A DNA stretch of 64,000 nt from Lingula anatina. Its lineage: Eukaryota > Animalia > Brachiopoda. The translations under genes were made by a program, and so were the position numbers. The notes below the pieces were generated by a model. The model worked only from the letters and a program-made list of their open reading frames with translations. It did not search any database and was not told the origin of the DNA. This document shows positions 11,819 to 63,495 of the stretch, piece after piece. Where the stretch lies: positions 8,180,587 to 8,244,586 of the forward strand of contig CM120648.1 of the NCBI GenBank assembly GCA_051362555.1, written 5' to 3'. How positions within the stretch are numbered: position 1 is the first letter of the stretch; every line of letters begins with the position of its first letter.

Positions 11819-13213
11819 TTAAATGAAATTGTTTTCTGCAGTTTCGGAGGAACTGTCTCTTCGTCGGCAGTAATTTGCAATATCGTGAATTAAAGAACTA
11901 AGCCTTTTCCTAAACACGTAGGACCTCAGTGTGTATATGTAAGGATTAGCGCATGTATTTATAAATCTAAATGAACTTGCAATTACACCGATAATATACT
12001 GATTTATATCAAGACTTGACGATTGTGATTTAAATATTATAAAAATAATGAGAAAAGGCAATATACTAATTAGAAATATGACCAGTAAAAGTAAACTAGA
12101 CAAAATAACTTGCTGGTCTTTCTGTATGATTTTTACATAGTGCATGTCCGAACCTGTTTGCACCTCCATTACGTCGGTTGTTTCCTGTGCAATTATGTCT
12201 ATAGTGTCAGGGCTCACGTTGCCTCTTGTCCACCGAACTTGAGCATTCGTGTTAATTTTTCTTTGGGAAAATTGCGGTACATCTGTTCGCTGCGAGGTGG
12301 AGCAAGATGGAGCTCCGGATCCTGGTAGTTCCTGGGCGTCTCTGGCTGAAATGGCTTCTATTGCGGTTGGCGCGTTTCCTGTAGATTTTGGTATACATGT
12401 ATGAACACAATGGCTTTGTTGATGCTGTCGTGAGACACGCTCTATAGGAGTAAAAGTCGGAGAAAGTGATTCGTCTGTGTTGTTGCCACCATCCGCCATA
12501 AACATGTTGGCGACATTTGCAGACACTGTGTGTACGGTATGTCCAGTGTAGTAAGGTTTTACCAACTGGCGTTGTTTTAAAATTTTTTTCACGACTGACA
12601 AGTAAGATAATATTGTTACTGTAACGCAGGTCATTGCAAATGTATAAGCAATTTTAAATAAAACACTGCTAGGTTGTTTTCCGTCCTTCTGACATTGCAA
12701 AGGGAACACAAATTCCCTGTTAGATTCGGAAACAAATGCAAAGAATATGATGCCTAGAATCCAATGTGCAGTCAGGCATATTTTGAAAACATGCTTTGGG
12801 ATAGTCAGAGTAGGCTTGTGAAACTTGGCTGCTCGCAGGACACTTATACTGGCCAAAATAACGATATTCATAAATGGTCCTAGGGCTAAAACACGCCCTA
12901 TAGAGCAATTGATAGAAAGTGTCGATTCATCCCATGACCAAAGTGTCATAACGAATAACGGGCACCCAATTAAAGACATAAACAGATCAACGAGTGCTAA
13001 GTTAATGTGGAATGAATTCCACCATGTTTTCAGAGACGGAGTACTTCTTGTGATCATAATAACGCAAATGTTACCGAACGCTCCAAACACTGCCAATATA
13101 GCTGTAAATAGTGTCACGGTGATGTGTGTCCATCTTGTATCATCAAAAAATCCTGGCTGATTCCACAAGCTAGTGTTTTCTGTGGCGTTGTATCCGCTGG
13201 ACGAATTCCTCAT
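11819..13213 (-). CDS. Intronless rhodopsin-like (class A) orphan GPCR, 464 aa
   Basis: Seven hydrophobic segments, N-terminal N-glycosylation sequons, TM1 GN, TM2 NLALVD, TM3 Cys with a DRY variant (VLRA), TM6 Pro, TM7 NPYIY, and a long third intracellular loop. Confidence 0.9.
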   Translation of the reverse strand: MRNSSSGYNATENTSLWNQPGFFDDTRWTHITVTLFTAILAVFGAFGNICVIMITRSTPSLKTWWNSFHINLALVDLFMSLIGCPLFVMTLWSWDESTLSINCSIGRVLALGPFMNIVILASISVLRAAKFHKPTLTIPKHVFKICLTAHWILGIIFFAFVSESNREFVFPLQCQKDGKQPSSVLFKIAYTFAMTCVTVTILSYLSVVKKILKQRQLVKPYYTGHTVHTVSANVANMFMADGGNNTDESLSPTFTPIERVSRQHQQSHCVHTCIPKSTGNAPTAIEAISARDAQELPGSGAPSCSTSQRTDVPQFSQRKINTNAQVRWTRGNVSPDTIDIIAQETTDVMEVQTGSDMHYVKIIQKDQQVILSSLLLLVIFLISILPFLIIFIIFKSQSSSLDINQYIIGVIASSFRFINTCANPYIYTLRSYVFRKRLSSLIHDIANYCRRRDSSSETAENNFI

Positions 13214-13959
13214 TTTGTATATTGGTAGTGGTATTTTTTTTTACCGTTTTAAATACTGGTATGGCTAAAGAAAGAGGTCCAAATGTCGTCAATCCAGCCC
13301 GTTCGATATGTTCCTTCAATAATACGATATCAAGACGTGTGCCGACAGAATGCTCCACGTCATCATAATTACTGCCGCGTATAACATCCACAAACAACCT
13401 GGCAACGCAACTTGAATCCAGCCAGAATCATTATCAAAGCAGACCTGGAACAATCTTTACAACAGTGCTACAGACATCACGCGCGAAAAGAATACAAAGT
13501 CATCCTACATAATTTCATTATGTCCTTTAGACAAAAATTCCAGTTTTAAATCTTTTCAAAAAGTTAAAAAGAAAATAAAGTCCTTTTGAAGGTGATGTGT
13601 TAGAATATACTAGTACATACAACCCGCGTGTTTTCCACAAGCAGTTCTCAAACAACAAGAGTGAAAATGGTAATTCGGAACTTATTATCGACACACTTCA
13701 TTATAATTTTCAAAACATGATGAGTGGTGGATTTTGAAATACATGAATTAGAATGTAATGTAGATTAATATACAGAGACAATTTCAAAAATAATTGCGAC
13801 AACCGCCGTTTGGTGGTAAAATAGAATTCATTTTATTTCTATGAGTTGTTTACAATGTGTTTATTGTGAAATGTGGATCTCACACGAAGACTTGTTATCA
13901 CTTTAAGATGCTTAAAAATAGGCTAGTGGCTTGGGTTAAAAACAACTGTATTAACGTCA

Positions 13960-20500: not shown

Positions 20501-23500
20501 TTTTCACTTTTTAGCATATATGCAACACTGTAAACACAATATAAGAAAAACAGATAGGCCAATTGTCATTTAAACTCACAGGAGTGGTTAATCTTACTAA
20601 AATGCAGGTTGAGTTTGAAAATTAGCATAATTGGGCCATTATTTTAGAAGTTATGCTGTTTTTTCACATTTCCTTAGATTCAGTTCTAAGGCATGTTAAC
20701 AGTTTCATTATTTAATTAATAAGAAATGTAAAAGTGTTTGTTTGACATTTTCTGCATCTTTACAACATTGTTAGTTGATTTCGTAAAAATGATGGTAAAC
20801 TTGTTCTGGTGTATTGTGTAATAAAGTGTCAAAAATGGAATTAAACTCATATCATTGCAGTTTGTCAGATTCAATTATTCAGTATGTTTAGAAACTCAGA
20901 ATGGAAGAAATTGGACATTTAACACTATTCTATTAATATTTTTCCCATCTCATCAATTTTCTTAGTTGATCATATATAAATGGCAGTAAATTGTTAATTT
21001 TGTTATATGTTAAAAAATTGTTAAAAATGGAAAAAAAACATTTCAGGACAGTGCTGTCTTGTCTACATTTTGGCATATTCAAGGTGTGACTTTGAAGTTC
21101 CTTGGGCCTGAAGACCTTTGCTAGGAACATTTTCTGAATATCCATGATACTAATATTTTATTATTAAAAATTGATGGTAATTATCCTGTTAAACATTATG
21201 TAATATTGCAACAAAATTTGAAGACACCCCTATTTTGGACACTGCTCCCATGATGACCATTTAAGGAAAACCATGTCACTTACTGTTCTCAAACTTACAG
21301 GAAGAAACAAGGGACTTAAATAAAGCTTCAGTGGGCAATGCAGTCTATTTGGTAAATTTTTTTGGCAGTTAATCAGTTTTTTGTGAAAATTTAATTTTTC
21401 ACATATTGGCATTTTCAAGGTGTGACTTAGAACCTCCACGGGCTTGAAGACCCATGCTAGTCATATTTTCTGAAAATCCACGATACGTATATTTTATTAT
21501 GAGGCCACCTGCGTCTGTCGTCGCCGTCGCCAATCATGTTGCCGTCACCGTCGCTGTGCACTTTCAGCGTTAACACCGTAAGTGGAAGATAGTTTTACTT
21601 TTTGGCTTTATATTTACAGAGCTGATGAGTATTCATAAAATGCAGGTTAAGTTCGAAAATAAGCATGATCGGGCCATTATTTTATAAGTTGTGCAGTTTT
21701 TTCACGTTTCCTCAGATTCAATTCTTAGGCATGTTAACAGTCTCATTATTTAACTAATAAGATTCGTAAAAGTGTTTGTTTGACATTTCCTGCATCTTTA
21801 CAACATTGTTAGTTGATTATGTAAAAATGATGGTAAACTTCTTATTTTAGTAGTTATGCTGTTTTTTACACTTTTCAGCATATATGCAACACTGTAAACA
21901 CAATATAAGAAAAACAGATGGGCCAATTGTCATGAAAGTCATAGGAGTGGTCAGTTTTGCTAAAATTCATGTTGATTTCGTAAACCAGCATAATCGTGCC
22001 AATATTTTTGAAGGTATTCTGTTTTTTCGCATTTCCTCAGATTCATTTCTTAGGCATGTTAACAGTCTCATTATTAAACTAATAAGATACGTAAAAGCGT
22101 TTGTTTGACATTTCCTGCATCTTTACAACATTGTTAGTTGATTTAGTAAAAATGATGGTAAACTTGTTATCATGTATTGTGTAAAAAAGTGTCAAAAATG
22201 GAAATAAACTCATATCATTGCAGTTTGTCAGATTTAATCATTCACTATGTTCAGAATCTCAGAATGGAGGAAATTGGACATTTAAGACTGTTCTATTGAT
22301 ATTTTTCCCATCTCATCAATTTTCTTAGTTGATCATATAAAAATGGCAGTAAACTGTTAATTTTGTTTTATGTTAAAAAATTGTTAAAAATGGGGAAAAA
22401 AACATTTCAGAACCGTGCTGTCTTGTCTTTATTTCCACGTAAGCAGTTGTATTGTTTTTTATGTCTTTAAACATTATGTAATATTATTTTATGCACTGTC
22501 ATCATTTTTCAAAAATTGAGACTTTCATCATGTGAATTTGAACTCTCATGATCCTGAAACTGTAATCTTATTGAAGAGGTGGATTGAGACCATCTTCTGG
22601 GTCTTCCGGAAGACGGTCAGGTTATTAAGTTTATATTGACTGGTATCTATTTTTTTCTGTTGGAAGACCATAAAAATGGGGGATGAATCAACATAGATAC
22701 TTTGGAATACTATCAGAAAATATCTCTGGGTTCGCTCCTGTTATTGACCATGGTACCTGTTGTGCATGATTAGAATTCAGTGTTGACTGACAGTGCTATT
22801 ATAAGCAGTATTTATTATTGCATCAAAATTGACAAAATGACCTATTTTGCATCTTTATTTTCTGTTTTTTGTCTGTACATTTGACAGCTTTGCTGCCTTG
22901 TTTATGATTTTTGACAATAACACTTGTTCAGTGTTGTCTGTAGTGAAGTGCCTTAGGTTCCATGAATTTCACATTTTTCTTTTATCAGGGGATGAATACA
23001 AACCAGCTAAATCAGAGAATGAGAGTGAGTCTGAAGATAGTGCAGGAAGTGGTGTGGATGAGGCAGATATCTCTGAACCCGAGACGGAATCAGATACTGG
23101 AACTCCAGTTAAGGTAGTGTGTGCCAGGTTCTTATGATCCCTTTCACACCTTGCAATATGTTGGGGTCGATCTAACTGACATTTATAAGAGGGTCCTGTC
23201 TGCTATACCACCTAGCTGTCAGTGAGTGTCAATGTCTACTTATATCAGTCTGATGAAGGCCTTCGCCCATGTTGGCCATAAGCTTACAGTATGAAAATAT
23301 TTCGGCGTGTGTTTGATAATTTTCACTTATGCTGCAATATACAGTATGTATTTGTATTGCAACAATTTGCCTGGTCCAAACAGGTACTGGTACATTACTC
23401 GGGGAGGGGTGGGGTGGGGTGGGTTGCTTCCTTTCATTTTCTTTCACAAGTTCACTTACTACTATTTGAGAGTATCAAAATTTTTCAAAGTAACTGGATA

Positions 23501-26500
23501 TGTCTTGTCTGGGGGTTCTGTTTGATGAGGCTGTTATGTAATGCCCGGGCTAGCCTTTTGAGTTGTTGATCTCTCAAAATGTTGAGATACAAATTCTTAA
23601 GCCACACAGTGTAAAAAGGAGTTAGGATTTTCCTGCAACTGCTGTGTCTGCAGATTGGTACCTGGTCCCAATTTCACAAAAAAAAAACAACAAAAAAAAA
23701 ATAAATAAATAAAATAATAATAATAAATATAATAAATAAAATAATAATAATAATAATAATTAATAAAAAATTAGTTGACTGGGATTTCCATGTGATTGCT
23801 GTTGCACTGCTTTTGATAGGGTAAGATGTAACCACGTAACTTGGTAATTAAGTTCTTGGCCCGGGAACCCGACTTAAGTTTTTTGTGAAACTGGGGCCAG
23901 GCCAAAGCCTTGTTCCATTTAAACAACAATAACATACTTGTATACAATGGTGTTAGGTGACAAATGATCCTCAGTCAAAATGCAGTAGCTTGAGATTTAC
24001 TTGTATGATACAGGCAATTTTAAAAAATAAGTTAGAAGATAGTTTTTGAAGTAGAGTAGACAAATTGATTGGGTTTCTGAACTTGACTGTGAATTTGATG
24101 TTAAGACTCTTTGCGTTGCTCTATCCAAACTGAAGTGGTATGTGACATGTGAATTCATATGAAAATACCCAAATTTTGTATATAATGCTTATAATATAAA
24201 TGATTTTAAATTTGTAAAAGTACCTTTAAAAAAATGGTCATTTTGAATTTATTTCTTGACTGTTAGGAAAATGCATTTTCATAAAACCACACTTCAAAAC
24301 TCTTGTTTTGGTGGTGCTATACATTGTAATTTGAACTTAAAATAATTTGATCTTTTTCAGAATTCAAGAAAAAGGAAAAGGGGCTCAGTTACTACATCTA
24401 AAACACCTGGGGTAGCAACAAAAGCTAAAGAAAACCTCAGCTCCTTTGCCAACACCACCCCCAGTTCCCCACTGAGTGGCGCATCCACCCCCCTCACCCC
24501 TCTCAGCAGGAGTTCCACCCCTCATACCCCTGTTAGTGTCAGTGACAAGACAAAGAGCAAGCTCATGGCATGGGCTGCCCCAGATACACCAGTGAGTAAA
24601 TGATGGTGCTTGTAACAGGTGCCGTTATCATGTAGATGTCATCACTTAATGCTTTATATGATTAATCTCTGCTTCACAAAATGAAAAAAAAATCAGAAAA
24701 AATAGTTTGAAGAAGAAGAAAAAAGGAAGAAAAAATAAATGTGCTTAGTCACAAATGTGAAAAAAAAAGCACAATTCTAAATTAATATCCATTTGTTAGG
24801 AAAATATCCATCTCCAATTTTTGAAGTTGATTATATTAACCAGTCATTTTTTCCTGTAATATTAATCTTAATTAAATGTACAAAAAGAGTCAACTTAAAA
24901 AGTTCAATTCACATATTTTTCATACTGTTTGAAAGAAAAGTAAAAATGAAAAATTTGACAGTGACAGACAAATTTTTTCATCTGCAGCCCGAGACGTCTG
25001 CCCCAGTCAGTGAAGATGGGACAGTATATATGCACTACACATTGGACTTCCTCAAACCAGAGAAAATCAAGTAATTAAACCTTATCATTTATTATTTATT
25101 TATAAAATCAAGCATGGAATTTTGCTCCAACTTTTAATGGAAACTATCTCCTTCTCTCAAGGGACCCCACCTGAGTTTGAATAAAAATGCAGTTGACAAA
25201 ATCTGCAGTTTTTTTTCAAACATTTTACACAAAGGCCAGTATCATGTTTGTTGATTTCATTTGAATGTGTTACATATAAATATATTTTAAGTTATCACAC
25301 CATTTTTCTCTTGCCTGAAAATTTAATTTTTTTTTTTTTGCCTACGTATTTGCTATTGAATGACGTGGAAAATATATAAGTTTCTTTCATATTGAGATAG
25401 AAAGTCATTAAAATATTTTTCTCAACCTTTCTCGGATATTGTTTTTTTTTCTTATTAACTGTTAAATTAATTTTGTTTACAGAGACATTGAAGGCAGAAG
25501 ACCAGATCACACAGAATATGACCCAAGGACACTCTATGTTCCTGACACTTTCAAAAAGAAGCTTACCCCAGTAAGTAAAACATAAAATGTGTCTGCTTTT
25601 GTGCTATTTTTATTTTCGTATTGGTTTGAAGTGTCAGCAGACAAAATTTAAATCTTTTATGATGATAAACCTGTTCGCTTATTTAAAAAAAAAGTGTTTC
25701 TTTGTTATTACTTATATTATTAGAAATTTAAGAACAATTTGGCATAGCTTTTCTAAGAAGGGTGTGGTGGCCCTGAAAAGGGCCATTTAAATGAAAGCCA
25801 GACTACATTTGAAGCTCTGACTCAGGAATGCACTGTCTAAACTGAGACCTCTGGATAGCTTCTGCCTCTTCAGAAACCCGCAGTGCATACTCATAGATCA
25901 TCTGCTTCACACCAAAGAGAGTGGTGATCTGCAGACGAAGGTTGTAGCGAGATGCAGGTCTGCTGGTCTTTGTAGCTCTCTGATAGCGTTCCTGGAGGCC
26001 CTTGATGTGATTCTCTAGCAACTGTAATTGGTTCAAAGCCTGGGTGAACTTGCCATGCATAATGATCAGTTGATCATTTACAAAGTCGAGATCTGGCAGA
26101 CAACCATCTTCAAACAAGCTGGAATCAGTGAACTGAAAATCATACGTGTCATCTTCTGAATCAAAGCTGTCATCCATCCACTGGTCACTGTCACTGTGAT
26201 CAAAACTGGTCTGGTTTTCCATTTTGGCAAACTGGAGAAAAGTGGAGAGCAACTGTCTTGTAGAGAGTTGAAACTCAAGTGATGTTCAGTCAGTGGTGGT
26301 CAGGTCTTTATATAGCCAGGGAATTTAGTCAGAAAATTTACAATTTTCTGGAAAAAATGGCTTCATTTTAGGTTTCAGGATTGAAGTTTGATGAATAGGA
26401 AGAAATGATTAAGAGGTCAGGTGACCTACCTTAATGAGGCCCAATTAAGATCAAAGAGTTTCATCACCTGTTGTCAGATCTTTTACCTGTTAAACCCATC

Positions 26501-29500
26501 ACAGACTTTTATCTCAAAGACCAATTGTTTAACTAGTTAAGCAGACTGTCAGTACAGGTAGGTTTTTTGAAAGGTGACTGGCAACTTTGATCAAAGGTTT
26601 AAGATTAAACCAGTTAACAGCTCTGACTAATTTACATGTTTATCAGCTAGCCTGCTTTGTTCAAGATTTAGGTTACAACATAGTCCTCAATAAAAAACAC
26701 CACAGTAAATCCCTGCAAAACATTATATTTCAAAGTAATTACCAGACTCCTATTCTTTTGCTTCCCCTTTCTTAAAGAATACCATAAGATGTAATTTTTA
26801 AGTTCTTTTTCTTACTAAAAATTATTATAATTTCAAATTTTATTTTTTAAGTCTGCATTTATCCCCATCCAACACACCATAATAAGATATTAAAGTAAGT
26901 TTTTAAAATTTCAAATTAACAGGGTTTATGATGAAGAGCCAATTGGTTCTACCTGTAGTTTAATAAGTTAGTTTTATAAGTCAACTGTTTAAATTAACAA
27001 TAAGATGTTACTGAAGTGTGTTTTATCAAAGAACTATCTAGACATTTAAGGCTTACATTTATTGAAGAAAGTTGTGAATTTTATGATGTTGGGTATCCAA
27101 ACAAACGAAGTAAATGAAATTTCTTTAAAATATGTAATGGGGAAAAATATAAGGCAGAAAAGAAAAGGTTTTAACTAAGTTTTTTATTTGAAACAGAAAA
27201 AACCTGTCTCATAATCTCCAAGGGCATTGTTTTTTATGCACAACACTAAAATGAATGAGGAAAAAAAAACAACAAAATAAGGCATACTAGCTGATTAACA
27301 AGTTCATTAGTGAGGACTATTAACCAGTTTTATTAAAAACCTTTGATCACAGTTGCCAGTCACCTTTCAAAGCACACTACCTGTACTGACAGTCTGCTTA
27401 ACTAGTTAAACAATTGGTCTTTGTGATAAAAGTCTGTGACAGGTTTAACAGGTAAAAGATCTGAAAACAGGTGATGAAAGTCTTTGATCTTAACTGGGCC
27501 TCATTAAGGTAGGTCACCTGACCTCTTAATCATTTCTCCCTATTCATCAAACTTCAATCCTGAAACCCAAAATGAAGCCATTTTTTTCTTGAAAAATGTG
27601 AAATTTTTGACTAAATTCCCTGGCTATATAAAGACCTGACCACCACTGACTGAACATCACTTGAGTTTCAACTCTCTACAAGACAGTTGTTCTCCACTTT
27701 TCTCCAGTTTGCCAAAATGGAAAACCAGACCAGTTTTGATCACAGTGACAGTGACCAGTGGATGGATGACAGCTTTGATTCAGAAGATGACGCGTATGAT
27801 TTTCAGTTCACTGATTCCAGCTTGTTTGAAGATGGTTGTCTGCCAGATCTTGACTTTGTAAATGATCAACTGATCATTATGCATGGCAAGTTCAGCCAGG
27901 CTTTAAAACAACTACAGTTGCTAGAGAACCACATCAAGGGCCTCCAGGAACGCTATCAGAGAGCTACAAAGACCAGCAGACCTGCATCTCGCTACAACCT
28001 TCGTCTGCAGATCACCACTCTCTTTGGTGTGAAGCAGATGATCTATGAGTATGCACTGCGGGTTTCTGAAGAGGCAGAAGCTATCCAGAGGTCTCAGTAT
28101 AGACAGTGCATTCCTGAGTCAGAGCTTTAAATGTTGTCTGGCTTTCATTTAAAAGGCCCTTTTCAGGGCCACCACATCCCTCTTAGAAAAGCTATACTAG
28201 ATAATCAATGAATATGTTCTGCGAGTCTCTGGAAAAGTGGAGGCAGTGCAGAGGTCACAGATTAGTCTGTGTACTTTGGAGTTCAAACTTTGTTTACTGA
28301 ATATGTCGTGTAATACCAAAGGCCCTTTTCAGTGCTGCAAATGTTACCTAGAAACTTCAAAGGCTATGCCAAATGGCCCATTTATAAATTAGATAAAAAA
28401 AGAGGTCTTTTGAATTAAATATCATTTTAAGGTTAAGATAGAAAATATTTATTCATTTTTTTTTATTTGTACAGTCTTTAAAGCAAGTAAATCATAAATG
28501 TATACTTACTATGTACTTTTTTTAAAAAGTATTTCTTGTCATTTTAGGCCATGAAGCAATGGTGGGAGATTAAATCAAAACATTTTGACACTGTGTTGTT
28601 CTTCAAGGTAAGAAAACTACAATTTATATACTACATCTGTCTTCCAGTAGTGCAAAAGTAAACATTTTGGATTTACAGTAATGACAGTTTGTATGGGAAA
28701 AAAATGGTGCAATATTCAGTGGTGGATTGAGGCTGTCTTCTGCGTCTTCTGGAAAACGGTCAAATTTTCAATTTTGCATTGACGGGTATCTAACTTCTTC
28801 TGTCAGCAGACGGTCAAAAAGGGAGGATGAATCAGCAAACTGGCCCTGATATTTTTGGTCTTTCTCTTGTCAGGTTGGCAAGTTCTACGAGCTGTACCAC
28901 ATGGACGCTGTCATAGGGGTGACTGAGCTGGGACTGATGTATATGAAGGTATAGTGCAGGGGTGGATTTAGGCCATCTTATGGGTCTTCCCGGAAGACGG
29001 TCAGATTTTCAAGTTTACAATGACGGGTATCTACTGTTTTTCTGTTGGAAGACAGTCAAAATAGAGGATGCATCAACAAAGATAATTTGGAAGGCTGTCT
29101 GAAAATATCTCTGGATCCGCCCCTGTAGTGTTGGAGGCAAATTTCAAGAAAAAGTGTGAAATTCTAGATGTAGGAAAGAGTGCTCTTCACATTTTTAGTG
29201 TCAATTCCCATCATTTGAAGATGTTATGTATTTTCAACATCTTGTTGGAATACTAATCGGCACATGTTGAGAACTGAGATGATGCCAATCTTAGGCCTGT
29301 TGTTATGAGAGTCAAAAAGTAGATCATTGTATTCTATGTATCACAAGAGTATCTTATCCTTATGTTATAAATGAAGTGAAATACAATAAATTACAAAACT
29401 CAAACCATAACTTAGCTATCATTCTGCCTTTTAATGAAATTTATTTATTATTTTTATGATAATGATGATTACTGTTATTAATTATTGATTTTTTTCTAAC

Positions 29501-32500: not shown

Positions 32501-35500
32501 CACATATTTGATAATTTTGATGGAATTTTTTTTTACCACTGCTCAGGTGCTGGATAGCGTGACCCTGTTCAATCTGGAGGTGATGGAGAACAGTGTCACT
32601 GGGACCACAGAGGGCACCTTGCTGGAGAGATTGGACCAGTGTGTCACGCCATTTGGTGAGTTCTCCACACCTTCTTACTCAGGGGCGGATTTAGGGCGTC
32701 TTCTGGGTCTTCCGGAAGACGGTCAGATTTTCAAGTTTACATTGACGGGTATCTATTTTTTTCTGTCGGAAGACGGTCAAAAATGAAGAACGGATCAACA
32801 GAGATAATTTGGAAGACTGTCAAAAAATATCTCTGAATCCGCTCCTGTAACTCCCCCCCCCCCCCCGCTCCTCCCCTTTCTCCTTTCTCGCCCTCATTGT
32901 CAAATTCCTTGTAAACACCATAGTTCTACTTTCCTTTAGGTATTCATAATCATTTTTTAAATAATTGTACAAAAAGCCAACTTTTATTATTGTAGGAAAG
33001 AGGCTGTTCCGTCAGTGGCTTTGCGCCCCCCTCTGCAATCCGTCTGCAATTGATGACCGTCTTGATGCTGTAGAGGACCTAATGGCAGCACAAGATGTTG
33101 TAACTGAAGTGATGGAACTGATGAAGAAATTGCCAGACTTAGAAAGACTTCTCAGCAAGTAAGGATATCCATCCCTGACCATAATTTTGTATTTTTAAAA
33201 GATGAGGCCTTTTAGTTTTATTATTATCATTTATTTCAATATATTTTATCTCACTTTTAATGTTAGGTTGTAACCTTCTTTTTATCTTTGTGATTATTTT
33301 GTTTGAACAATTGTCAAGTGGGATTCCTGTCGTTATTTTGGTTAACAATCATCAAATGGGATTCCTGTCCTCCTTATAGAATCCACACCTTGGGTAATGC
33401 CAGCAGAAGCAAGAACCACCCTGACAGCAGAGCCATCTTCTATGATGATGTCACCTACAGGTAAAACTCATTATAAATACCCACATCTGTGAGCCACAGG
33501 ATGAGCTGCTTGTAGTTTGCCATAACAAGGGTATGGTGAAAGAATTGTGCTATGTAGATTGATCTAACTACATAGTTGCTGAACGTAATCAGATTAACTA
33601 CATGTAAATGGCACTCTTTAGTTTAAGGACCTAGGAGGTTGTTTACTTTTCTGTGCCTTGGCTTCTGGAAGTTTTTTTTTTCGCTTTCTTTGAAGTGCAA
33701 CGGAAAACACAAGAAAGTTTATCACCCACTAGCCACCGGAAGAGGTGTGTCATTCAGTTAATCTGTTTGCATTCAACAGAGTTGGATTGATCTACATAGA
33801 ATGATACTTTCATTAGGAGCACACCCTAAGTTACATTAAGCAAATACATGTGTATATCTGTAGTAACTATTAAAATAATGCAATTATGATTTCTCTTTTT
33901 TACAGTGTTAAAAATATAAGATATATCAATTCAAGAACAATTCAAAATTTTATTTTATTGTTTTGGATAATTCTAATAATATTAATGATTGATGTTTTTG
34001 CAGTAAGAAGAAGATTGAAGATTTCCTTGCTACTTTAAATGGATTCAAAGCAACACAAGACATTGTCCTTAAATTTAAAGGCAAAGGTCAAAATTTCAAG
34101 TAAGTTGTAAGTTTTTCTAATGTTCTTTACTGAAGATGTAAGTTTATTTTCATTTTCCATAGCTAGTAAGATAACATAATTTAGTTGTTTTACGGGGATG
34201 GGGGGTTACTATCAGTCATTTTATAGAGGTAGGTAAGGAAAACTGAGTAAGCCAAGTTAAATATTTAAAAACCGGTAGTATTCCTCAATATTACATGGTA
34301 TGCAGTCTTTTTTTTTTTCAATTATTTTGTTACCTCTGTAGAATTTTTATGAGTTTGAGCCCCATATCTCTAAGTATGTAACTTGACATTATAGGTCAAG
34401 ACTCCTGAGGCAGTTGGTGACAGTGCAGAAAAGTGACACGAGTAACTCAGCAAAGTTCCCTGATCTGGTGGAGAAGTTACGCTTCTTTGATGTGAGTAGT
34501 TTTAATTTTTCTCATTTTCAAGTATATAATATTTCACATGGCAGTGTTTTTTTCTGTGCTCGATCTGTGCATGGTGATTATATTATGTACATTCAAAATC
34601 ACTGTCAGACTAAATCATTGACTCATATTAAAATACACATTTACAGAATTTGGTTTATAAAATTATACAGTTATTTCACACCTGTTTCTACCTGTAGCAA
34701 GCATTTGACCAGCAGAAGGCCAAGGCCCAGGGGGTCATTGTCCCCTCCAAGGGGGTAGATCCCGAGTATGACCAGTCCCTGGATGATATTAAGTCCACTC
34801 AGGCCAAACTGGACACTTATCTTGACCAGCAGAGACAAAGGCTTGGATGCAGGGTAAGGGTTGGATAGGATTGATAAAGTTAGCAGATCAAAGTTGGTCA
34901 ATTGTGTGTGTGTGAGTACAAATGGTATGTACTTGTATGCTGCAATGTTAGTTATAGGGATTATACCCAAAGATGGAAAAAATTAAATTTATATGCAATA
35001 TCAGATTTATTAACTACAACTATTAGTAAGATTGGTAAGTAAACATTTATGCTGCAGAATGATCACTTTTAGAAAATTTTAATCTTAAAATATTTAGAAG
35101 ACTGAATTATTTATTTAATAAGTCCCCAAAAGAGCAACAAAAAGTATGTACATTTCAAGGAAAAATTCACACCTCTTGTATCAGATTTGAAATGCGGAAA
35201 CATTTACATGTATATGTGATTAAAACAAATGTAAGCACATACACAATGACAGTACATAAGGATAAAGAAATTGCTAATCATGCTTATGGGGTTTTATTAT
35301 TTCAGTCCTTGCAATACTGGGGCACTGGCAAGAATCGCTACCAGTTAGAGGTCCCTGAGGGAGTGCTCCAGCGTGTCCCAGACGAGTACGAGTTTGAGTC
35401 CCAGAAGAAGGGATTCAAGCGCTATCGCACCAAGAGGATCATGGGATTGCTAGCTGAAATGGAGGCCGCGGAGACCAGGAAGGTGGACGCACAGAAGGAC

Positions 35501-39802: not shown

Positions 39803-40904
39803 AGAAAGTGGACTCTAAAAGAGGAAACATTTGTAAACATGCAGCCACAGTTGCCAAGAACATTATACCATTATTTACTAAAAGGATCCAGTTGACTGAA
39901 ACACTTGAGTAACATACAATATACTGGAATAGAAAAAGTATCAGGCATTAACTCAGACAGTCATGGAGTACACAATTGAGCAATTAGCTAGAAATAGTAG
40001 TCGGCAGATATTTGCCTTTAAAAAGTCTTTATTATTCAGGAGCAAATCCTTGCAGAAGCACTGGAAATGTATTGCTGCTGCTTTATGAATGTATTAGATT
40101 TACTCAATCTGTGAGAAAAGTAGGCAGAAAAATTGGGATCCAGTCTGTCGATATGCTGATTAACTTTATATTTCTTGCCATTTGAATTATGAAATAGCGG
40201 ATCAGAATGTATTGTTAGAAATTTGGTTAGTTGGGAAATTTGCCTGACCTGTTCAAACACTTAACCAACTGTTAATGCATGATCACGAACTGTGTAAATG
40301 TATGTGCAAATTTGGGTTCATTTACGGCAAAATATTTGCATACAGTTATCAATTTGATATTTGATACGAAGTATCATTTAGTATTTGAATGCAGTTCCAA
40401 TTCTCTATATTTGAAGTTCCACAATTACTTGTATGTTTTAATGCATCAAACAGGGATAAAAAACGGCAGAAAATACATGTGCGATTACCTTTCTGTTGAT
40501 AAATCTCCACGTTTTACTGATATTCAGTTGCTTTGGACATTCTCTGCATAATTTTTGTCCATTTTATACTAGAGTACTTACAGGGGTAGGTAGTACTGTA
40601 ATTGAGCAGTTATAACATTTATGATATTGGTAGAATAAACCTTATATTTTGAAATTTACATGCTGATTCTGTGTATTGACCCAGAATTTTGATTTTTGTA
40701 TTCCCAGTTTTTCATTTTTTTTTCTGTACATCAAGATTGCCAATGCGGCGTTTGTATAGATGTGCACAAACCGGTGTCACTACTAACACATTTAGCCTCT
40801 TCGATGCGCGCAGGATACACGCTGCAAATGATAAACAAAAACGCAGCGTCGCGTGGCACTCCGTGCGTATGAGATTCCAAATCACTTAACGCGCCGGCCG
40901 CAAG

Positions 40905-42627
40905 ATGGCGGCAAGGAGTCGTTGGAACGCTGTCTGGATACCGATCTTCTTTCTCAGTTTCCACAACTCAGCAGTAACTTGCAGGAAAGGCGAGATCTAC
41001 GAGCACTTTCTGTCGTCGTCTGCTCGGGGTGAGAAATTTATTCATCATGACATGTTTATGATCAGCTCCCCCGACATTCTTACGGGAAACACCTCAGCTT
41101 TCATTGAATATGTGTTCAACGGAGGAGAGAAACGCGCTACAGCAGCCGACGGTCTGGAAGATTTTCTGAGAGATTTCAAGGAGCTTGGAAACACCAGTAG
41201 AACTGTCAACGAGAATATGCTATTGAAAACGGGAAAAACCAATGGCAGATTCAGCGAGGAAATTCCCTCGCGACTTGACGAGGGTAATTTGAATGAAACT
41301 GCGCTGTGGGAACATCGTGGCTTGGCAGTTGATCCAAGCGAACTTCAGGCGCCGGTTGATGGCAAGGGTAGTGACACCCGCAGTTTTAAAGAGGAAAAAC
41401 CATCAAAATATAGCGACTTTAGAAAGGGAAATGCGACCTCGGCGATGAACTTAAAAAGCAATATAACAGGTGATACAGAGAACAGCCAGTACAACCGAGT
41501 CCAGATGGAGAATAATATTTTATTTAAGATCATAAACAGAAGTGGAAAACGGAACCAGACAGGCAGCAGTCAGAAACTCTACACTCTGCGGTTTGTTGAA
41601 ACAGAAGGCAGAGAGCATGGATCACACAAGCGCGTAGGTGATGTCGTCATGGCAACTGCTACTAGAGGTCATGGCAGACGGAAACGAACACCGGGGAGAC
41701 GTAAGTTTTTTTTTTCTTTTTTTGTGTGCGAATTTAATTAAGATTTTCTGAAGGCAAGCGTCTAGGTCTTGGTGCCATCGCAACAACCATTTACGAAAGT
41801 TTGCATTTATTTTGCTCTAGAATTCAAAAAGTATAAGCTGTTGGTGTTTTGACCGTGAAAATGAAATGAAAACAATAACATTCACGCTACTTATACTAAC
41901 GGCAACCACGAAAAGTAATGCATTAGCACTTTGATTTTCGTTCTTAAAATGTATATTATGTGCCAATAAAGCAGATATAAAAAATCAATACAAGTGCTAA
42001 CAGATGATTATTCGTGCAACGTAACAGTGTTTTGCACTTTCTTTTTACGCTTGACGCTGCGCGTACAATGTAAAAACAAATCCATTTCCCTTAATGCGTT
42101 GAGTGACTTCGTTCAGTAAAAAGTAACTCGGTCAATGGGAAATGTCGGGTTAAGGGAATAGGTAATATCTGAGGAAAAATACCCCAAATCTTATCACAAT
42201 CACAATCAAAGTATGTGTCACAACAAACGCAATCATTGTGAATGCTGCTGACGATAATTCTCAAAATTGTATTAGCTGTGTAAAGAGATTTGATTTCCCG
42301 CTAGTGTCTTCACCTAGCTGGAAACGCACTTGAGCTTTCTACTAAAATAGTTCAATTTCTATCCTAGGTTGCTGGATGGACTGCATATGGCGATGGAAAT
42401 ACGGTTTTCTCAAATGCGGTTTTTATGACAAACTCACCATGTGCGGAGGCGGGGACTACATGGTCCGATACTATGACGTAGCCAAAACCTACCACGCCCA
42501 CTGTTGGCCAGGGAAAGGGTCATACGGAATTACCCGAAACAGGAAATTCATCTGGGTGCATAAATGCGAAGGGAAGTTTGTCGTGAAGTATAAGAAGTAT
42601 CTTGGCTGCAAGCCCGTCTGCTATTGA
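40905..42627 (+). CDS. Secreted pre-pro-protein (351 aa) with a furin site and a Cys-rich DUF3011/ADEL-lectin-like C-terminal domain
   Basis: Exon 1 (40905-41700, phase-1 donor C|GTAAGT) joins exon 2 (42368-42627) in frame. Signal-peptide-like N-terminus, RRKR site, and motif CWPGKGSYGI..IWVHKCEGKF resembling DUF3011 (recalled, not searched). Confidence 0.75.
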
Positions 42628-45292: not shown

Positions 45293-48200
45293 TTAATACC
45301 CTGAGAGCCTGTCACTACTACTGACTGGCCCTGTATTGCTGTTCACACTCCCTAAAACTGGACCATTGTGGTTGACTTGTCCCAGTGACTGTGACCTCAG
45401 TGGAGAATATGACCTCCCTGGGGACTGTGGCATCACATTAGTATGTGAACTCACAGGCAATTGTGACATCATATGGGAGAGTGACCTCACAGGTGACTGT
45501 GACCTCACAGGCGACTGTGACCTCATATCTGATTGTGACCTCACATCTGATTGTGACCTCACAGGCGAATCTGGTCTCACAGGTGAGTCTGATTTCACGG
45601 GTGTGCTAGTTAAAAATGGAGACGGGGTCCTTCGTAACAGTATGGACCCTAAGTCATTACCTCCATTTTGATTTTGGAAATAAGGCTTATTGGAAAACTT
45701 TGGGTTGACCTGAAATAAAGGGGAAGCTCTGCCTGAGATTCCATTCTCCAGACCAAGGGTGAATGATTTTTGGTTATCCTGAAAGTAAAATAAAGATAAT
45801 ACAATACAGGTGCATCATGTCTGTTTAAGTTGAAAAAAAAAAAAAAAAACCAATGGCAACTTTCTGTTTTATTTCATTCCATTCTTAATTCAGTGTTTTA
45901 TATTGTAAAGATACAGTCACTCAACATATTTCTATGTAATATTTTTCTTTTATCACTTTCAAATTTTACTACTTATTAGTAATCACATCTAAGATAAGAC
46001 TTGTCACCCCCTTACATTTCTCTCCTCCTTTGCCTTAAGCTCTTTGACCATCTTCTCCAGCCCTGCCCTCTGTTTGACCAGTGAATCTAACCTTGACTGC
46101 AGCTGGAAGTTCTCGTCTTCCACAAACTTCAACTTCACATCTAGAAGTTGAAGAGCCCTTGCCTTGTCACGGGCAAGTTCTTCATTTTCTGCATTTCTGA
46201 AATAAGAACACTTTCCGTTGTACGCTGTGGTGTATATGGTTTTTGGCACTTTACATCCAGTAGTTGAAGACCCCCCCCCCCCCTAGCATGGGCAAGTTCA
46301 TATTTTTCTGCATTTCTGAGATATGAGCAGCCATGCTATTACTTTGAATTCAACATAGTACATATCACTGCTGAAGGTAAAGAAGGCAAAGCAGATCAAG
46401 TTCAGCCCAAATTCAATAGAGTGGCTGTGGACTGATATAATTTGGAGGCACTTGCTGCCATCATTGGTGTACCCAATAAATATTGACATTTGTTCAGAAA
46501 AAAAAACATGGTTTGAGTGGCCATTAAAATTGTCCTGGTTATGAATACTGGACTCTCAGTGTGACCTCTTCTCTGTCTGTCTGGCATTCTGTTTGCCTTT
46601 GTACTTGACAGCCATTTTTTTCTCTTTGGGTCTTTATACATGTTTAACTTCCATCACTATAAGCAGGATGTTTTAGGACTAATCAGAATTCATTTTCGGA
46701 CTTCATCTTCAACTCTGTCTATCAGGAGGGTCTTCTCTCTGTCTTCTCTACTGAACCAATTCTTAACACCACTTACTGAGCAAGTAGTTCTCTTTTCTCC
46801 TGTAGCACCATTTTGTATTTGCTCTCCATCTTAGCCTTCCACTCGGCCTCTCTGGAGAGCGTGGACTGTGCCAATAACAGCTCGGACTCCAGTCGTTGGA
46901 GCTCGTCGCGAAGGCGCTGTTTTTCTCTCTGGAACAGCTCCCTTCAGAATGAGTGAAAAATATTTTGTAGGGTATGTACATAATATAACTGATAAAATTG
47001 GCAAAGGCATATAATGTAGTTCTTTGGCAAGGACACTTTTTGATCTTTTTTCTTCTGACAAGATTTAGTAAATTAACAAATTTTGAAGCTTACTATAATA
47101 AGTTACTGAAGTTTCTCAGCCACAATAATGTGCTCTACTGTGAATCCTGAGACTTGAACCAGTTCCTCAATTTTTTTCATTCTTTAAAAAAGTTTTAAAA
47201 GTTTTTTTGTTTTTATAAAATCAAACACAAGTTTTCAGAAAGAGCAAAAACCATCATGACAGTTCTGAAGTAAAAAGATATTTACGATGTCATTTTAGAT
47301 GTAGTTTAGATATTTACTGGTGCCTATGTTCATTGACACACATACCTCGCATTCTGAAGTTTTGCCTTGTGCCTATTTTTCCTGTCCTGGTTCTTCTTGG
47401 TCTGTGCCTGCAGTTTCTCTGATACTGAGAGGAGCTCTAACTGAAGAGTTTCAGTTTCTTGCTGAAGTTTTGCCGCCTGGCCTGCCAGGGTCTGCTTGCT
47501 TTGTTCTGTTAAGTGATGCTGTAAGGGAAATATACAGAGTGAACCACTGGCCCAGAGATTTTTTTCTTTCCTTCATTTTTTTTAAACAATCTAACTTTTG
47601 CTACATCATTAAAAACATTACTGATGCACAGCTTTTTTTTCTTTTCAAATGCTATCAAAAACAGATTTCATTTTTCCCTTTTCACAAGTCTACAGGTGTC
47701 TAAGCTAAGACCTAGAAATACAATCAACCCACTGAAACAGCCCTTGAATTGCTTTTGGTTGTTTTGCAACTGTTACACTAACTAACCCTGCAGCTGTTCA
47801 AAACATATCTAAACATAGGTCACTGGCAAGAAGTCAATAGTGATTTGAATGGACAACATGCTGTGCGCCTACCAGACAGCACAAGACTCACCATGTCATT
47901 CACAGACTTTGTCTCGTCTTTCATGTTGTTCATTTTAGCCTCCACATCCAAAAGAGTGTGTTGTAATTCTTTATTCTTTGCCTGTAGCCTGGCCTCTCTG
48001 TCCTTTAGGGAATTAACTTGCTGCTTCAGCTCCTCACAATTCTGTGTGGAGATTTGTCTGGAGGTAATTTAAACATATTAATGCTTCGTTTATTCATTCA
48101 TATTGCCATAAAACTTTGCACATGCCAAATCTACTTTAGTGCTTTTTAAATATCATTTTATTAAAATATCATTTGAATACCTGGTCAATTTGCTTGAATT

Positions 48201-51200
48201 AAAAAAAGAAATAAACATTTGGGTTTGGCAAAAATAAAAGTGACCATAACTTGACAAATTTCTGTCAACCTTAATTAATACAGTTACTGTGGTAGTAAAT
48301 GGCTTCTTCATAATGAATTCTGTACTATTTTAGAAGGAGGAGATATACATGTAAATCAATAAACATCTAAACCACTAAATCTATGTAATTATTCCATATG
48401 ACCCATAATCGCAGCTGAGTCACCCTTCTCATTGTTCTCTCTCTCTCTCCGTGTGTGTTACTTACTTCTGTAACTTCTCCTCCTGTAAATTATTTCGCAG
48501 GCGAATTAGCTCATCCTTGGTGGTCTGAAGTTCCATACGAAGGACAGGGCCTTCACGTAACTGATGCTCAGCTGCCTGCAGGCGTGACAAGGCCTCTTCC
48601 AGGTCAGTTTGGAGCTCGTTGACCTGAAACAACAAGGTGAAGGTCAACCTAGAAATAGGTCAGTTTAAATATCAAGGTTAAGGTCCAATTGGAATGAGGT
48701 CAGCTGAAATGCCAAGGTCAAAGAAATACATTGGAGGTCAATGAAATATTTACAATAAAAGAATTGAAATGGAACAGTTCTGCTAAATAAATCCACTTTC
48801 TACTATAAAATGTATTTAATAACAAAAAATATAGCTAGAAAACTTAGGGAGAGATATAATACATGTATATAGTCAGAAGAGAGAAGAGGATGGGTGGGGA
48901 CACAGGTAGACAATATGTTTTCTCTCAATATTTCTGTGTGGTACAAAATGAGAATATACTATTACACTACTATACAAAAAAAGAATTCACACTTGACAAC
49001 ATTGTGCCATAATAACAAACAAACAAAATAATAAATAAATAATGGACTGATTAAAAAAAAACTGACTATGACATGAAACACACACACACACACACACACA
49101 AATTTACACTAGAACTGACAGCTAGAGCATCTTTCAAGCTTGAAATACATCTCCATTTCTTGGACAGCATAAATTACCAAGTGATGATGGCAACTGTTAC
49201 TAAAATAACAATTTTAACATGCCACATTCCCTCCACCAGTTTAGGAACGGCAATACAACATGTACTTACTATAGTTAATCATGGCAGTGAAAATAAATAT
49301 CAGTACACTCTGGTGCAAACAAGACACATTTAACAATATGCAACAGATAGCCCATATGAAATAATACAGTCTCCATGGCTATATAACACGCAATGTGAAC
49401 ATGCTGATATTATCAAAGCTGAGTACATAAGGGGGAGGGGGGCTTATCCAAGATTCAGGGGGAAGGTACCCCCCCCCCCCTTGTCCCCTTATCCTCAGTA
49501 GTTGTAGAGTTCACTTTATGTTGGTGACAACTTTTAATCGATGAAAATTCAATTAGATATGACAAAACAGTGCATTTGAATAAATGTATCATAAATAATA
49601 AAAAGTTGTGGGTGGGCACTTCTGTTATAACTTCTCATTCTTACATGTACCTCCGAATCTTCTCTGAGTGTGATACGCATGTTAATTCAGAAAAAAATTT
49701 AGCAACAATTTTAGTTTTCAATATATGAGGACAATATATGTGCATGTGTGGGAGGGGGTATGTACATGTGTATGTGTGCATGTGCTCTCAGTAGTTTATT
49801 TCTCATGATCTTACTTGTAATCATTTTTAACGATGAATTATCAATGTGTATTACTGGGCACATAAATTGCAAAGGCACAACACTACTAAAACATGGATCT
49901 TGTAGCTGGTGTGTGCAGGCGTCAGAGCGCACGCACGCACAAATAGGCATATGTATGCATGTGTTTTCTTGCTGAAGAGACAAATACATAATATATAAGA
50001 AGATATAAATATAATTCACCTTGATGGTTCTATGATTTTCAGCAGTAAGCAAACAAAAAAGAAATGCCTACATATCACAAATAAACAAGCAGACATTGAA
50101 TATTGGCCCTTTCCCATTAAAATGAAATAGAAATGGTTTTATCATACAGTAAAAACTTCAGATTAAATAAGACCCTTTCAACAGAAAATACCAGAAGATA
50201 GAAGACAACTCACCTGCATTTGAGAAATTTTACAAACTTACATAAATACTAACACATAGGTAAATGAATAGAAACTTTAGAGAACATTGAAAACAGAAAT
50301 TAAATAGTATAAAAATGCATTTTTAGTTAGACATTCAGAATGTCTAACTAAAAATGCATTGTTATACTATTTGCATATTGCATTCTAGAGTCTAAACCGA
50401 AACATTCATGACTATGCTATATGTAGTATACAAGTTCTGAAATACTAAATTAAGTTCTTTGACAGTTATGAAACAGAGACCTTTGAAAAAATATTAAATA
50501 ATAATACACTAACAAACATCACATAGTACTGTTCAAGATGAATTTTGTCAATCAAGCTAATGCGCACAAGTTCCATGGGGACTCTTGCTGTATGCAATCA
50601 GATTTACAGACTAACATGCTTCCTGTTACTTGTATTTCAAACCTGTTCCTGTAAAAATGCCAGGTTTTCTATATTCTACACAACGTCAGGAGGCATGTTA
50701 ACCTGTTGAATTTGTGCATATTAAACAGGTCAACAAAATTCATGGTGAACGGTCCCATACTTAAATTATTTCTGATATAATTTAGTTCTGATGTGAACAG
50801 CACCCAACAGTGCATTCTGCAATGCTTACCCTTCTCTCTGCGTTCTCAGCCCTGTTGTTTGACATTTGGAGTTGCATGCTTTGGTCGCTGGCTCTCTGAG
50901 TAAACAGCATTTCTGTCTGTTTGGATACGCCACGCTTCTGAATAAATCAATAAGAAAATAATAACAATAATATCATAACAATATATGTATAACAAAAAAT
51001 ATATTGTATGCAGATAATCTAAACAAAAAGAATATTTAAAGGTCATTTTAGTGAGAAAATTTAACAATTGGCCATGCTGACCTTAAAGCTTAGAGTAATG
51101 ATGTTGGTGTTCATGGAAATAACAAAAATTGTGGCAATTAGTCACAATTAAGTGAATAGAATCTGTCAGATATTCCTTGAGTCAACATACATGTAGGCGT

Positions 51201-54200
51201 TGATAAACCTTCTTAAATCATTACAGACATAATATCATGTTAAATGAAGCACCATACCCTTTCTAATTCTTCTTCCAAAAATTTGTTGGCATCTTCAAGA
51301 AGTCTGACTTTTTCCAGTAATTCCTTCGTCTGATTTAGCACCTGCAATTGTCAGAATATGTAGTACTGGATTGAAAAAAATATGGATACAGGACAACAAA
51401 AATGGTTATTTCTTTCTTTAAAAAATTAATATTAAAGGTACTATGCAAAATATTTCCATAGACAAAGTAATTATGATTTGAAACAGAGCGACATGATGCA
51501 TATTTTCATTATACCAAAAACATTAACAATATCAAGAAAAACACACTAATAAAAATAAAACAAAAGTTATGATTAAATAAAATATTAAATTTTATTGACA
51601 GTCTCTCATCTTAAATCTGAGATATAACATCTCAAATTACCTTCTGACAAGTTTGGGTGATAAAAATAGAAACTTTGTTTTTTTGTTTTTTAAACTTTAA
51701 AAAAGTACTTTTTTTCACCTTTGTCATTTCCTGTTCCAAGGTCGTGTTTCTCTTCTCCAGGTCTGACCTTGACTTAATTTCTGTTTCAAGACGGAGCTCA
51801 GTTTTGCTTCCACTATTTTTAACCCTGTCTCTAGCTTCTTTTAACTCCTGTATTTCCTGCAAAAAAGAGAATGTATCCGTATCATCGAATGTGCAATCTT
51901 ACATTATACAAATTCTATACTTTCTATACATCCTGTAATAAAACATTACATTCACCAATAAAACCTTGATAATGATAGCAATATTCATATATTATCAATC
52001 CCGTTCTTCAGTTTCATATTTCCCAGGGCTGGCTACAATATTTATCTATACTTCTATAAAGCTAGTATCAGTCTAAGTACACAATTGACCCAAATTTGTC
52101 ATCAGTGAACAGGCAGACTTACTGTTCAACAAAATAATCAACTAAATTAAATTTGTAGATAACCAACCTACACAACGTAGATAACCTCCTTATATGAAAG
52201 GACACCGCTCCCCCAAGAAACTCTAATGTCAAATTTAAGGTATAAGAAACCAGATTCTCCATAATAAGACCCTGACACAAAAGCAACACCGTGTTCCTCA
52301 AACTCTTCATCTAGTTAATTTTGATATTCCTGTCTGCTGGACAAAGTCTATCCATTATCATAGCAGACACCTCAACTGTTACTACAAAAACTACTACAAC
52401 TACTAACAGTAAAGGCCAATGTACAGTGTACCTATGACTGGGTTCCCATACCTATATTGATCTAAAAGGAAGGGTCCATCTCCAAGGGGTTTCTTGCTAA
52501 ATTGCTTTCAGCTTAAGCGACTTAGATGTCTACTAAGGCTGCTTAACCATAGTTAATTACCCCCTATCAGCTTCAGTATAGGCGTGACAGACATCTAAGG
52601 TGCTTAAGTTGATTGCAATTTAGCGAGAATCTCCTAGGAGATAGATCGATCCAAAGTTAGTACAATAGGGTCCGGGAATTGATCCCATATGTTGACCTTT
52701 TTTGTTCAGTCTATCTATAAGGTCGACATAGCAGAGAACTGGTTCAGTTGAATACTTGCGGCCACAGCAGCAACATCAACATGCTAGTCATCGCATTTCT
52801 CCTGCAGTGCTTTGTAACTGCATGCATTGGACAGTTATCCCCTAACTTGACCACTACCACCAAACCTCATGTAGTGACCAGCAGTGACCAGTGTACCTAC
52901 ACACTGACTGTTCCTGCCCCTGACAAGACCTGTTCCGCCGAGGCCAAGAAGATAGCCAGTCTGGAGCAGAGGGCACAGAAACAGGACGCGGTCTTGCTGG
53001 CGATGCAGTCCAGCCTGATCCATGCTGAACAACAAATACGAGATCTTCAGACAGTAAGTGTGGTTCACTTATTTTATGATTTATTCAATAAATGATTTCA
53101 TCACCTTAACAGCGATATTTGTTCTTTTATTGATATTATAATTTCTGCACTATGAATTATGAATTTTATTTTGAAGCACAAATTTAAGAGTAATTGAAAA
53201 TCAAATTCTTTCTGAAAAATATATATATTCTCCATGAAAGAGAGAAAAATCACTGAGGTAATTTGAATCAATTTAATCATTGTTTGTTATATTGAAAATA
53301 GTTTCATCAAATTAAGCTGTCATCAATTCAAACAGTTCTACATATGAATTCTTTACTCTGATTGTCATATTGAGGGGAATTTCCTCGGACAAAGCCGAAC
53401 CAGTCACAAATGACACTATAAGAAGAAAAGTTATCATTTTTAATGAGAAGTTTTAGACAATATTCTATATCATTTTATTTCAGCAAATGAAGACACAGTC
53501 ATCCAACATTCAAAGCCTCCAGAGTTTGAGCTCTCAGCTTCAGCAACAACTAGCCCAAACCCCCAAATTTCCAATCAAGAAAGAACATAAAGGTAATGTA
53601 AAGTTTAAATGAAATATCATCATTCTGATGTACCTTATTTCGATAGGCTTCACCAAATAATACAGAAACAGTCAAAGGAAATATGCAGTATTTAACATAA
53701 TCACTAGTATAACCACTGTGTATCCCCAAATATATCTAATGTGACAAAATAACAAGTAAAGCTGCTTTGTTTAAGCATGAACCAATTTTTAGAAATCTGT
53801 AAAAACATATCAATTTACTAGCACCTTGAAAAGGAGGAAAAAACAAACCAGACCACTCGAGTCATGAATAACACAATACTATTAACATTACTTTCCTTTA
53901 CAGATTGTTCTGAATACAGACTAGATGGTTATAAAGACACAGGTTTATATAACATCACACTGAGCCATGCCCTGTCCCAAATCACAGTGTGGTGTGACAT
54001 GACCACTGACAATGGAGGATGGACGCTGATACAGAGAAGACAAGATGGCTCCGTTTACTTTTATCGTGACTGGGCAGAGTACAAGAATGGCTTTGGTAAC
54101 ATCGATGGAGAATTCTGGTTGGGGAATGATGACATCCACTATCTGACCAATCAGAAAGATTACAGGCTGCGTGTTGATTTGTGGGACTTTGAAGGCAATC

Positions 54201-58241: not shown

Positions 58242-58322
<81 letters not shown>

Positions 58323-63397: not shown

Positions 63398-63493
63398 CTG
63401 AAACATGACAACAGTTTTAAAATTAAAATTACTTGCCAGGTTTCTAGGATTTTTTAAAATCAAATTTGTGTTATTGCTTATGCTGGCATTGTT

Positions 63494-63495
<2 letters not shown>

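Follow-up and report, generated by a model that had tools for sequence, protein, structure and literature searches.

Within a single intron of MSH6, a 64,000-nucleotide stretch of the Lingula anatina genome (contig CM120648.1, positions 8,180,587 to 8,244,586; the window, in what follows) carries two divergently oriented genes with 98% identical reading frames that encode a non-histone protein and are each followed by a candidate 3′ end of the type found on replication-dependent histone mRNAs. Both arose by recent duplication of one gene, which belongs to an old family of small helical-hairpin proteins in invertebrates. From comparison of family loci, we consider it likely that the class of this family bearing the RNA hairpin has its transcription driven by TATA promoters, and that SLBP and the U7 snRNP (a small nuclear ribonucleoprotein) process the transcripts into tail-less mRNAs timed like histone mRNAs. 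Histone mRNAs are stated to be the only ones processed in this manner (PMC5054213, PMC4604434); the pathway itself is known, and the family would give it a class of client that appears to be new.

The pair comprises the following elements, given in window coordinates with open reading frame abbreviated ORF and histone downstream element abbreviated HDE.

25571 to 28547, plus strand: MSH6 intron hosting the pair, GT..AG, with flanking exons that join in frame as ...KLTPAMKQWW...
25737 to 26661, minus strand: left arm of an inverted duplication, with promoter, ORF and 3′ signal of copy A
26314 to 26307, minus strand: TATA box TATATAAA for copy A, with the ATG 92 nt downstream
26222 to 25803, minus strand: copy A ORF, 139 residues, intronless and uninterrupted
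25784 to 25769, minus strand: stem-loop of copy A, GGCCCT-TTTC-AGGGCC, 18 nt after the stop
25754 to 25748, minus strand: AGAAAAG, the HDE-like purine-rich stretch of copy A, 14 nt beyond the stem
26662 to 27275, no strand: AT-rich spacer between the arms, 614 nt, 27% GC
27276 to 28202, plus strand: right arm of the inverted duplication, with copy B
27341 to 27489, plus strand: two occurrences of CTTTGATC in the upstream region, retained in copy A as well as copy B
27625 to 27632, plus strand: TATA box TATATAAA for copy B, with the ATG 92 nt downstream
27717 to 28130, plus strand: copy B ORF, 137 residues, an acidic N-terminal stretch of 44 residues and then a predicted two-helix hairpin (45-86, 89-131), the family domain
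28155 to 28170, plus strand: stem-loop of copy B, GGCCCT-TTTC-AGGGCC, 24 nt after the stop
28185 to 28191, plus strand: AGAAAAG, the HDE-like purine-rich stretch of copy B, 14 nt beyond the stem
28198 to 28390, plus strand: decayed third copy, the 3′ end of an ORF (53% amino acid identity over 30 residues, 71% nucleotide identity) with a broken stem-loop at 28321-28336

An earlier, sequence-only reading of this DNA had described two intronless ORFs with TATA boxes and a strong start context, a 16-nt stem-loop 18-24 nt after the stops with ACCA behind it, and a purine-rich AGAAAAG about 15 nt further on. Each of these elements is borne out. The frames run continuously between TATA box and hairpin in both copies (as read from the DNA and, for the 5′ leader, from sequence alone), the start-codon context of both is GCCAAAATGG, ACCA follows each stem-loop directly, and the purine element begins 14 nt after the stem in both. 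Cleavage of the copy B transcript is predicted at about 28174-28175. Both hairpins have G-C at the second stem pair and U at loop positions 1 and 3, and their distances from the stop lie at or slightly under the 25-60 nt given for histone genes (bioRxiv 10.64898/2026.10.14.759114). A strict stem-loop consensus occurs twice in the 64 kb against 0.02 expected occurrences. The covariance check proposed earlier, with Rfam model RF00032 (Histone3), succeeds for copy B (36.5 bits, cut-off 34, E 5.7e-7), which is the sole match at cut-off to any Rfam model in the whole window, and fails for copy A, which has the identical 16-mer yet scores under the cut-off. The earlier statement that no AATAAA lies near either 3′ end stands for copy B, with none in the first 1.2 kb, and not for copy A, where one, at 25609-25614, lies 188 nt past the stop.

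The proposed nesting in MSH6 is upheld: compared with solved human MSH6, the PWWP exon matches at E 2.9e-22 and one exon of the core at E 9.4e-20. The intron has GT..AG ends, and the pair occupies most of it. No histone gene lies near the pair. The divergent arrangement stands as described but not as two observations: both genes are arms of one inverted duplication, about 94-96% identical, and therefore constitute a single evolutionary observation. The decayed third copy, 3′ of copy B, repeats the last 30 codons with a broken hairpin in the corresponding place; because it keeps this layout, the link between ORF and hairpin is older than the recent duplication.

The evidence that carries our reading comes from homologs. 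A pattern derived from the family alignment retrieved 56 metagenome loci with 61 family ORFs, 54 of which could be scored; the remaining seven have no stop or less than 200 nt downstream. Under the strict pattern, a histone-type hairpin lies within 200 nt downstream of 31 of the 54 homologous ORFs, compared with 0.1% in shuffled sequence, and five homolog loci reach the cut-off of RF00032 itself. The 296 kb (both strands) hold four other strict-pattern matches, three adjoining family genes and one representing a second hairpin further downstream of such a gene; 15 antisense matches are the same palindromic hairpins in reverse reading, for which reason they were not used as a control. When 27 of the hairpin sequences are made into a covariance model, seven further loci are recovered at E<=3.2e-5, bringing the count to 38 of 54. 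Among these seven, the hairpin of L038 lies inside an extended reading frame; in L051 and L052 the ORF ahead of the hairpin is partial and the 5′ arm is damaged. Another five ORFs possess a six-pair hairpin with an A-U first pair and the same loop uridines (43 of 54). When members are clustered at 70% core identity, 13 of 20 clusters have the hairpin, two have the variant and five have neither (tallied by hand).

The stems are conserved as structures. In the stem alignment 95.7% of cells are paired and three of the six pairs change on both sides in compensatory fashion; all slid controls score below the true stem alignment, for sequences that had been chosen for having the hairpin. Loop positions U1 and U3 are invariant in all 29 unique homolog hairpins though the pattern allowed C, and position 2 varies (T12 G9 C7 A1). 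SLBP contacts L1 and L3 of the loop, and 3′hExo contacts L2 (PMC4604434). A purine run starts 12-15 nt past the stem in 31/31 homologs and reads AAAGA in 25 of the 31, the complement of the UCUUU box that is called universal in U7 (PMC5054213). This fixed HDE spacing is the strongest sign that cleavage, beyond SLBP binding, would be selected. The distance from stop to stem has a median of 42 nt in the family (range 20-173). Homologs thus mostly keep stem-loop and HDE near the stop, the point that the earlier reading had put up for testing, and the proposed co-option of the SLBP/U7 pathway by a non-histone family gains support that is comparative in nature. A search of viral contigs for the hairpin-plus-HDE pattern gave no match. 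Among 15 homolog pairs, two were saturated and dropped, and the dN/dS of the core is 0.01-0.20 in 12 of the 13 computable pairs, which indicates purifying selection on the family ORFs. Over a quick tree, members labelled for the hairpin are scattered, and the order of origin and losses is not resolvable from it.

Three homolog loci have additional features. Two overlapping tandem histone-type hairpins lie behind the family member in the extended reading frame at L038:583-650; three tRNA genes adjoin a hairpin-bearing member at L028:1780-3420; and an open frame of 488 codons without a Pfam match lies downstream of a hairpin-bearing member at L056:2408-3871 (plus strand).

Upstream of the pair, the CTTTGATC motif, which we take to be TCF/LEF-like, was one of 12 motifs tried and is seen twice against 0.02 expected. 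It occurs upstream of just 2 of the 61 homologous ORFs and is therefore no family-wide feature. The upstream arm (27341-27530, mirrored at 26410-26596) contains many palindromes, with the two CTTTGATC sites, five CAGGT motifs and an AGGTCA-CC-TGACCT inverted repeat, possible Wnt/TCF or nuclear-receptor input; these motifs of the arm and its mirror show no conservation in homologs.

Members with and without the hairpin differ in the rest of their gene anatomy. A TATA box stands at the expected place in 30/32 hairpin members versus 2/7 without (p 7e-4), and AATAAA lies within 300 nt of 8/38 versus 8/11 (p 0.003), both p-values being inflated because near-copies were not collapsed. The 11 of 54 ORFs that have neither hairpin nor variant tend to lack TATA, to have AATAAA and sometimes to contain an intron; in L031 and L049 the intron follows a conserved YEYA motif, and L008 is the uninterrupted form of that branch. 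By analogy, the hairpin-less class would be the polyadenylated counterpart within the family, like the replication-independent histone variants. In Hydractinia, a split between stem-loop and poly(A) forms is found in histone genes (H1.2 and H3.3.1 versus H3.3.2; PMC5011920), so that there, likewise, one family comprises an intronless stem-loop class and a poly(A) class with introns, whereas here both classes are non-histone and the split is deduced from DNA alone. L001, nearly identical to a Lamellibrachia protein, has no hairpin, and annotated family members may therefore be biased to the poly(A) class.

The window protein agrees with the earlier description of an acidic product without a histone fold. 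Its isoelectric point is 4.5, with 15 D/E and zero K/R in the N-terminal 45 residues and a basic core. AlphaFold2, supplied with an alignment of 150 sequences, predicts two helices of about 42 residues (45-86 and 89-131; mean predicted local distance difference test score, pLDDT, 85.7). A full HMMER scan with the window protein returned 273 clusters at E<=1e-3 (best 2.3e-14), matching residues ~45-130. The named relatives, all hypothetical proteins, come from one annelid, one nemertean, three gastropods and one bivalve; uncharacterised lophotrochozoan proteins with the same domain include KAI0240625.1, XP_064650874.1, A0A0B7ADZ9, BFZ06018.1, CAG5135126.1, KAH3798070.1 and KAH3770177.1. All eight near-invariant family residues (Q65, R79, Y80, A83, Y93, R96, G104, Y112) are present in the window protein. 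Charge is partitioned along the chain: of the 150 members, 132 allowed a division into core and tail; in 125 of these the core carries a net positive charge, and in 75 the net charge of the C-terminal tail is -5 or lower.

Searches for a named relative were negative within their scope. Pfam gives nothing at the curated cut-off for either window protein and just scattered coiled-coil matches for the 150 family members, TBCA being the commonest (4/150). With the single window protein, neither a word-based homolog search nor a search of metagenomes found a match, and the ESM Atlas gave none that was usable; one homolog returned unnamed ESM Atlas clusters at 0.81-0.82, a lead only. Prokaryotic genomes yielded no relative, and viral contigs returned none (one candidate was counted, for which no locus was returned). 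A sequence search of the PDB found coiled coils alone (E>=0.006), and structure searches of the PDB and a viral library gave nothing at E<=1e-3, returning generic hairpins. The fold search was flat, with Z up to 11.7 and root-mean-square deviations of 1-3 Å over about 90 residues. The ING N-terminal domain, the ESCRT-III core, prefoldin and the LSD1 tower share with the window protein the generic geometry of a two-helix antiparallel hairpin, but at 4-17% identity and with no match that stands out. Because the fold matches are flat, none above the others, we draw from them neither homology nor function. The sequence-only reading had allowed that the protein might prove to be a divergent histone or a transposon fragment; neither relation was found.

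Several observations weigh against the reading that these genes belong to a working class with a histone-type 3′ end. The homolog loci examined belong to the EG[VL]RN branch and not to that of the window protein, so that the 3′ end of no close relative has been seen. On the quick tree, which has few columns, the window protein forms a long branch with 40% identity to the nearest row. The purine box in the window is AAAGC where homologs have AAAGA, a fit to the complement of UCUUU (PMC5054213) at 4 of its 5 positions, and its A-run stands about 2 nt further out than theirs. One homolog pair has a dN/dS of 2.4. Copies A and B differ by 4 synonymous and 4 non-synonymous changes (dN/dS ~0.25), too few to demonstrate selection on these two copies. 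The complete stem-loop and HDE at 28155-28191 lie on the sense strand of the MSH6 pre-mRNA, and downstream MSH6 exons are still spliced in RNA reads; the hairpin thus does not cut all host transcripts, provided that the sampled animals carry the insertion. In view of this splicing one may ask if cleavage is promoter-dependent.

Transcription provides the remaining point on that side. We searched four RNA runs labelled as this species, of which one was a poly(A) library, one was oligo-dT and two were unspecified, reading 6-25% of each. Zero reads cover 26700-28517 (copy B and its upstream region) in 4/4 runs at 90% likeness, a threshold that also catches copy A, and no read comes from any close paralog. 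Spliced MSH6 exons in the same runs reach a depth of 39 in one and 1-3 in the others. The zero reads argue against an abundant polyadenylated transcript in the sampled RNA, though the sampled animals may lack the insertion. As two libraries are poly(A) or oligo-dT and two are unspecified, the absence of reads fits a tail-less or stage-restricted mRNA but also fits silence.

The family may indeed use the histone 3′ end while these two copies are silent or decaying and working copies reside elsewhere in the genome. This explanation, compatible with the claim for the family, is unlikely in our judgment, though it deserves to be taken seriously. In its favor are the zero reads in all four runs, the adjoining decayed third copy and a long-branch protein altered at well-conserved positions (C63L, E103F, R106K, N107Q). 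However, ORFs, TATA boxes and hairpins are intact in both copies, the ORF (1.9%) and leader (1%) have diverged less than the upstream region (6.2%), and the stops differ yet close the frame within two codons in both. Nor did any read at 90% likeness come from a close paralog.

A second alternative, which we regard as improbable, is that a selfish or mobile cassette borrowed the histone 3′ signal for expression in dividing or germ cells, with a protein that serves the element. The copies sit dispersed, in introns of genes that are not related to one another (in the window MSH6; exons for FTHFS and glycogen debranching enzyme lie beside L036 and L037), two copies are present in 5 of the 56 loci, and some clusters have 35-41 members, several on equally long contigs. 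Histone genes, however, also disperse and multiply. No transposase, reverse transcriptase or histone was found in the 64 flanking ORFs scanned of 85, although the metagenome loci are short and non-autonomous elements would escape such transposon tests. The ends share only low-complexity 6-8-mers, with no convincing target-site duplication; viral and prokaryotic contigs returned no relative; and hairpin-less paralogs with introns exist (L031, L049).

It is very improbable that the hairpin recruits SLBP for translation or storage and that cutting and polyadenylation of the mRNA take place at a site further downstream, independently of U7. Such a route could make use of the AATAAA 188 nt past the copy A stop or of those within 300 nt of 8/38 hairpin members, and SLBP-dependent polyadenylated maternal histone mRNAs have reportedly been observed in Drosophila (PMC11997800). 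Against it, the purine box stands at fixed spacing in 31/31 homologs, which is explicable by U7 pairing alone, AATAAA is rarer in hairpin members than in others, and the two poly(A) libraries contain zero reads. Finally, we reject a core or linker histone identity, in which an extremely diverged histone would carry its ordinary signal, as having next to no chance of being right: gene anatomy is all that favors it, whereas histone Pfam families are found in 0/150 members at E<=0.01, two ~42-residue helices (pLDDT 85.7) are predicted in place of a three-helix histone fold or an H1 winged helix, the isoelectric point of 4.5 and the N-terminal 45 residues without K/R are unlike a histone, and none appears among the listed rows of the fold and sequence searches.

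Under the reading that we prefer, of histone-type processing in a non-histone family, RNA polymerase II would start at the TATA box, SLBP would bind the stem-loop, the U7 snRNP would pair with the purine box, and CPSF73 would cut about 5 nt after the stem; the tail-less mRNA would then be translated and degraded on the SLBP schedule, during S phase or else in oocytes and cleavage-stage embryos. A summary of the steps of this pathway is given in bioRxiv 10.64898/2026.10.14.759114. With metazoan replication-dependent histone genes the hairpin class shares the absence of introns, the TATA box, short untranslated regions, a stem of 6 bp whose pair 2 is G-C, uridines at loop positions 1 and 3, ACCA, a purine box ~15 nt later, multiple gene copies and divergent pairs. 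It differs from them in that its product is not a histone, that SLBP/U7 processing is here predicted from DNA, and that loop position 2, the 3′hExo contact (PMC4604434), is U in only 12 of the 29 unique family sequences. A literature search of incomplete coverage, with supplements outside its scope, found no report of a non-histone gene with stem-loop and HDE, or of this family; the word ‘non-histone’ does not occur in the available part of bioRxiv 10.64898/2026.10.14.759114, and the passages found of a review of histone gene organisation (PMC13525598) contain no such gene.

Our broader interpretation, toward which we lean with less assurance, is that an ancient multi-copy lophotrochozoan non-histone family forms a second class of SLBP/U7 client with a polyadenylated, intron-bearing counterpart, is absent from annotations on account of mRNAs without poly(A), and encodes a partner of replication-coupled or early-embryo chromatin assembly. 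In the protein, the face of the helical hairpin formed by R79 Y80, R92 Y93, R96, Y110 and Y112 is conserved as basic and aromatic, and the acidic tail is probably disordered and of the histone-chaperone kind. We tentatively suggest, as a role that could easily prove wrong, that the protein is a small adaptor linked to chromatin or replication, required alongside new histones and acting through this face and the tail. If our interpretation is true, annelids, molluscs and nemerteans have a conserved family of non-histone clients that breaks the rule of histone exclusivity, the pathway is reusable to tie another protein to S phase or maternal storage, and a gene class overlooked by poly(A)-based annotation comes into view. 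The natural variation at loop position 2 would offer a way to separate SLBP binding from 3′hExo-driven decay.

The window also contains these features, apart from the pair.

11822 to 13240, minus strand: intronless rhodopsin-family G-protein-coupled receptor of 473 residues
14954 to 16627, minus strand: ORF of 558 residues with RVT_1 and a weak GIY-YIG domain, which we take to be a Penelope-like retroelement
40890 to 41738, plus strand: open frame of 283 residues with a signal-peptide-like start and no Pfam match
52721 to 57000, plus strand: two tandem fibrinogen-related genes; the minus strand opposite them holds a long coiled-coil gene with multiple exons (about 46000-63700)
22570 to 22741, 28713 to 29126, 32676 to 32848 and 56694 to 56870: an abundant dispersed repeat family, heavily represented in the RNA reads

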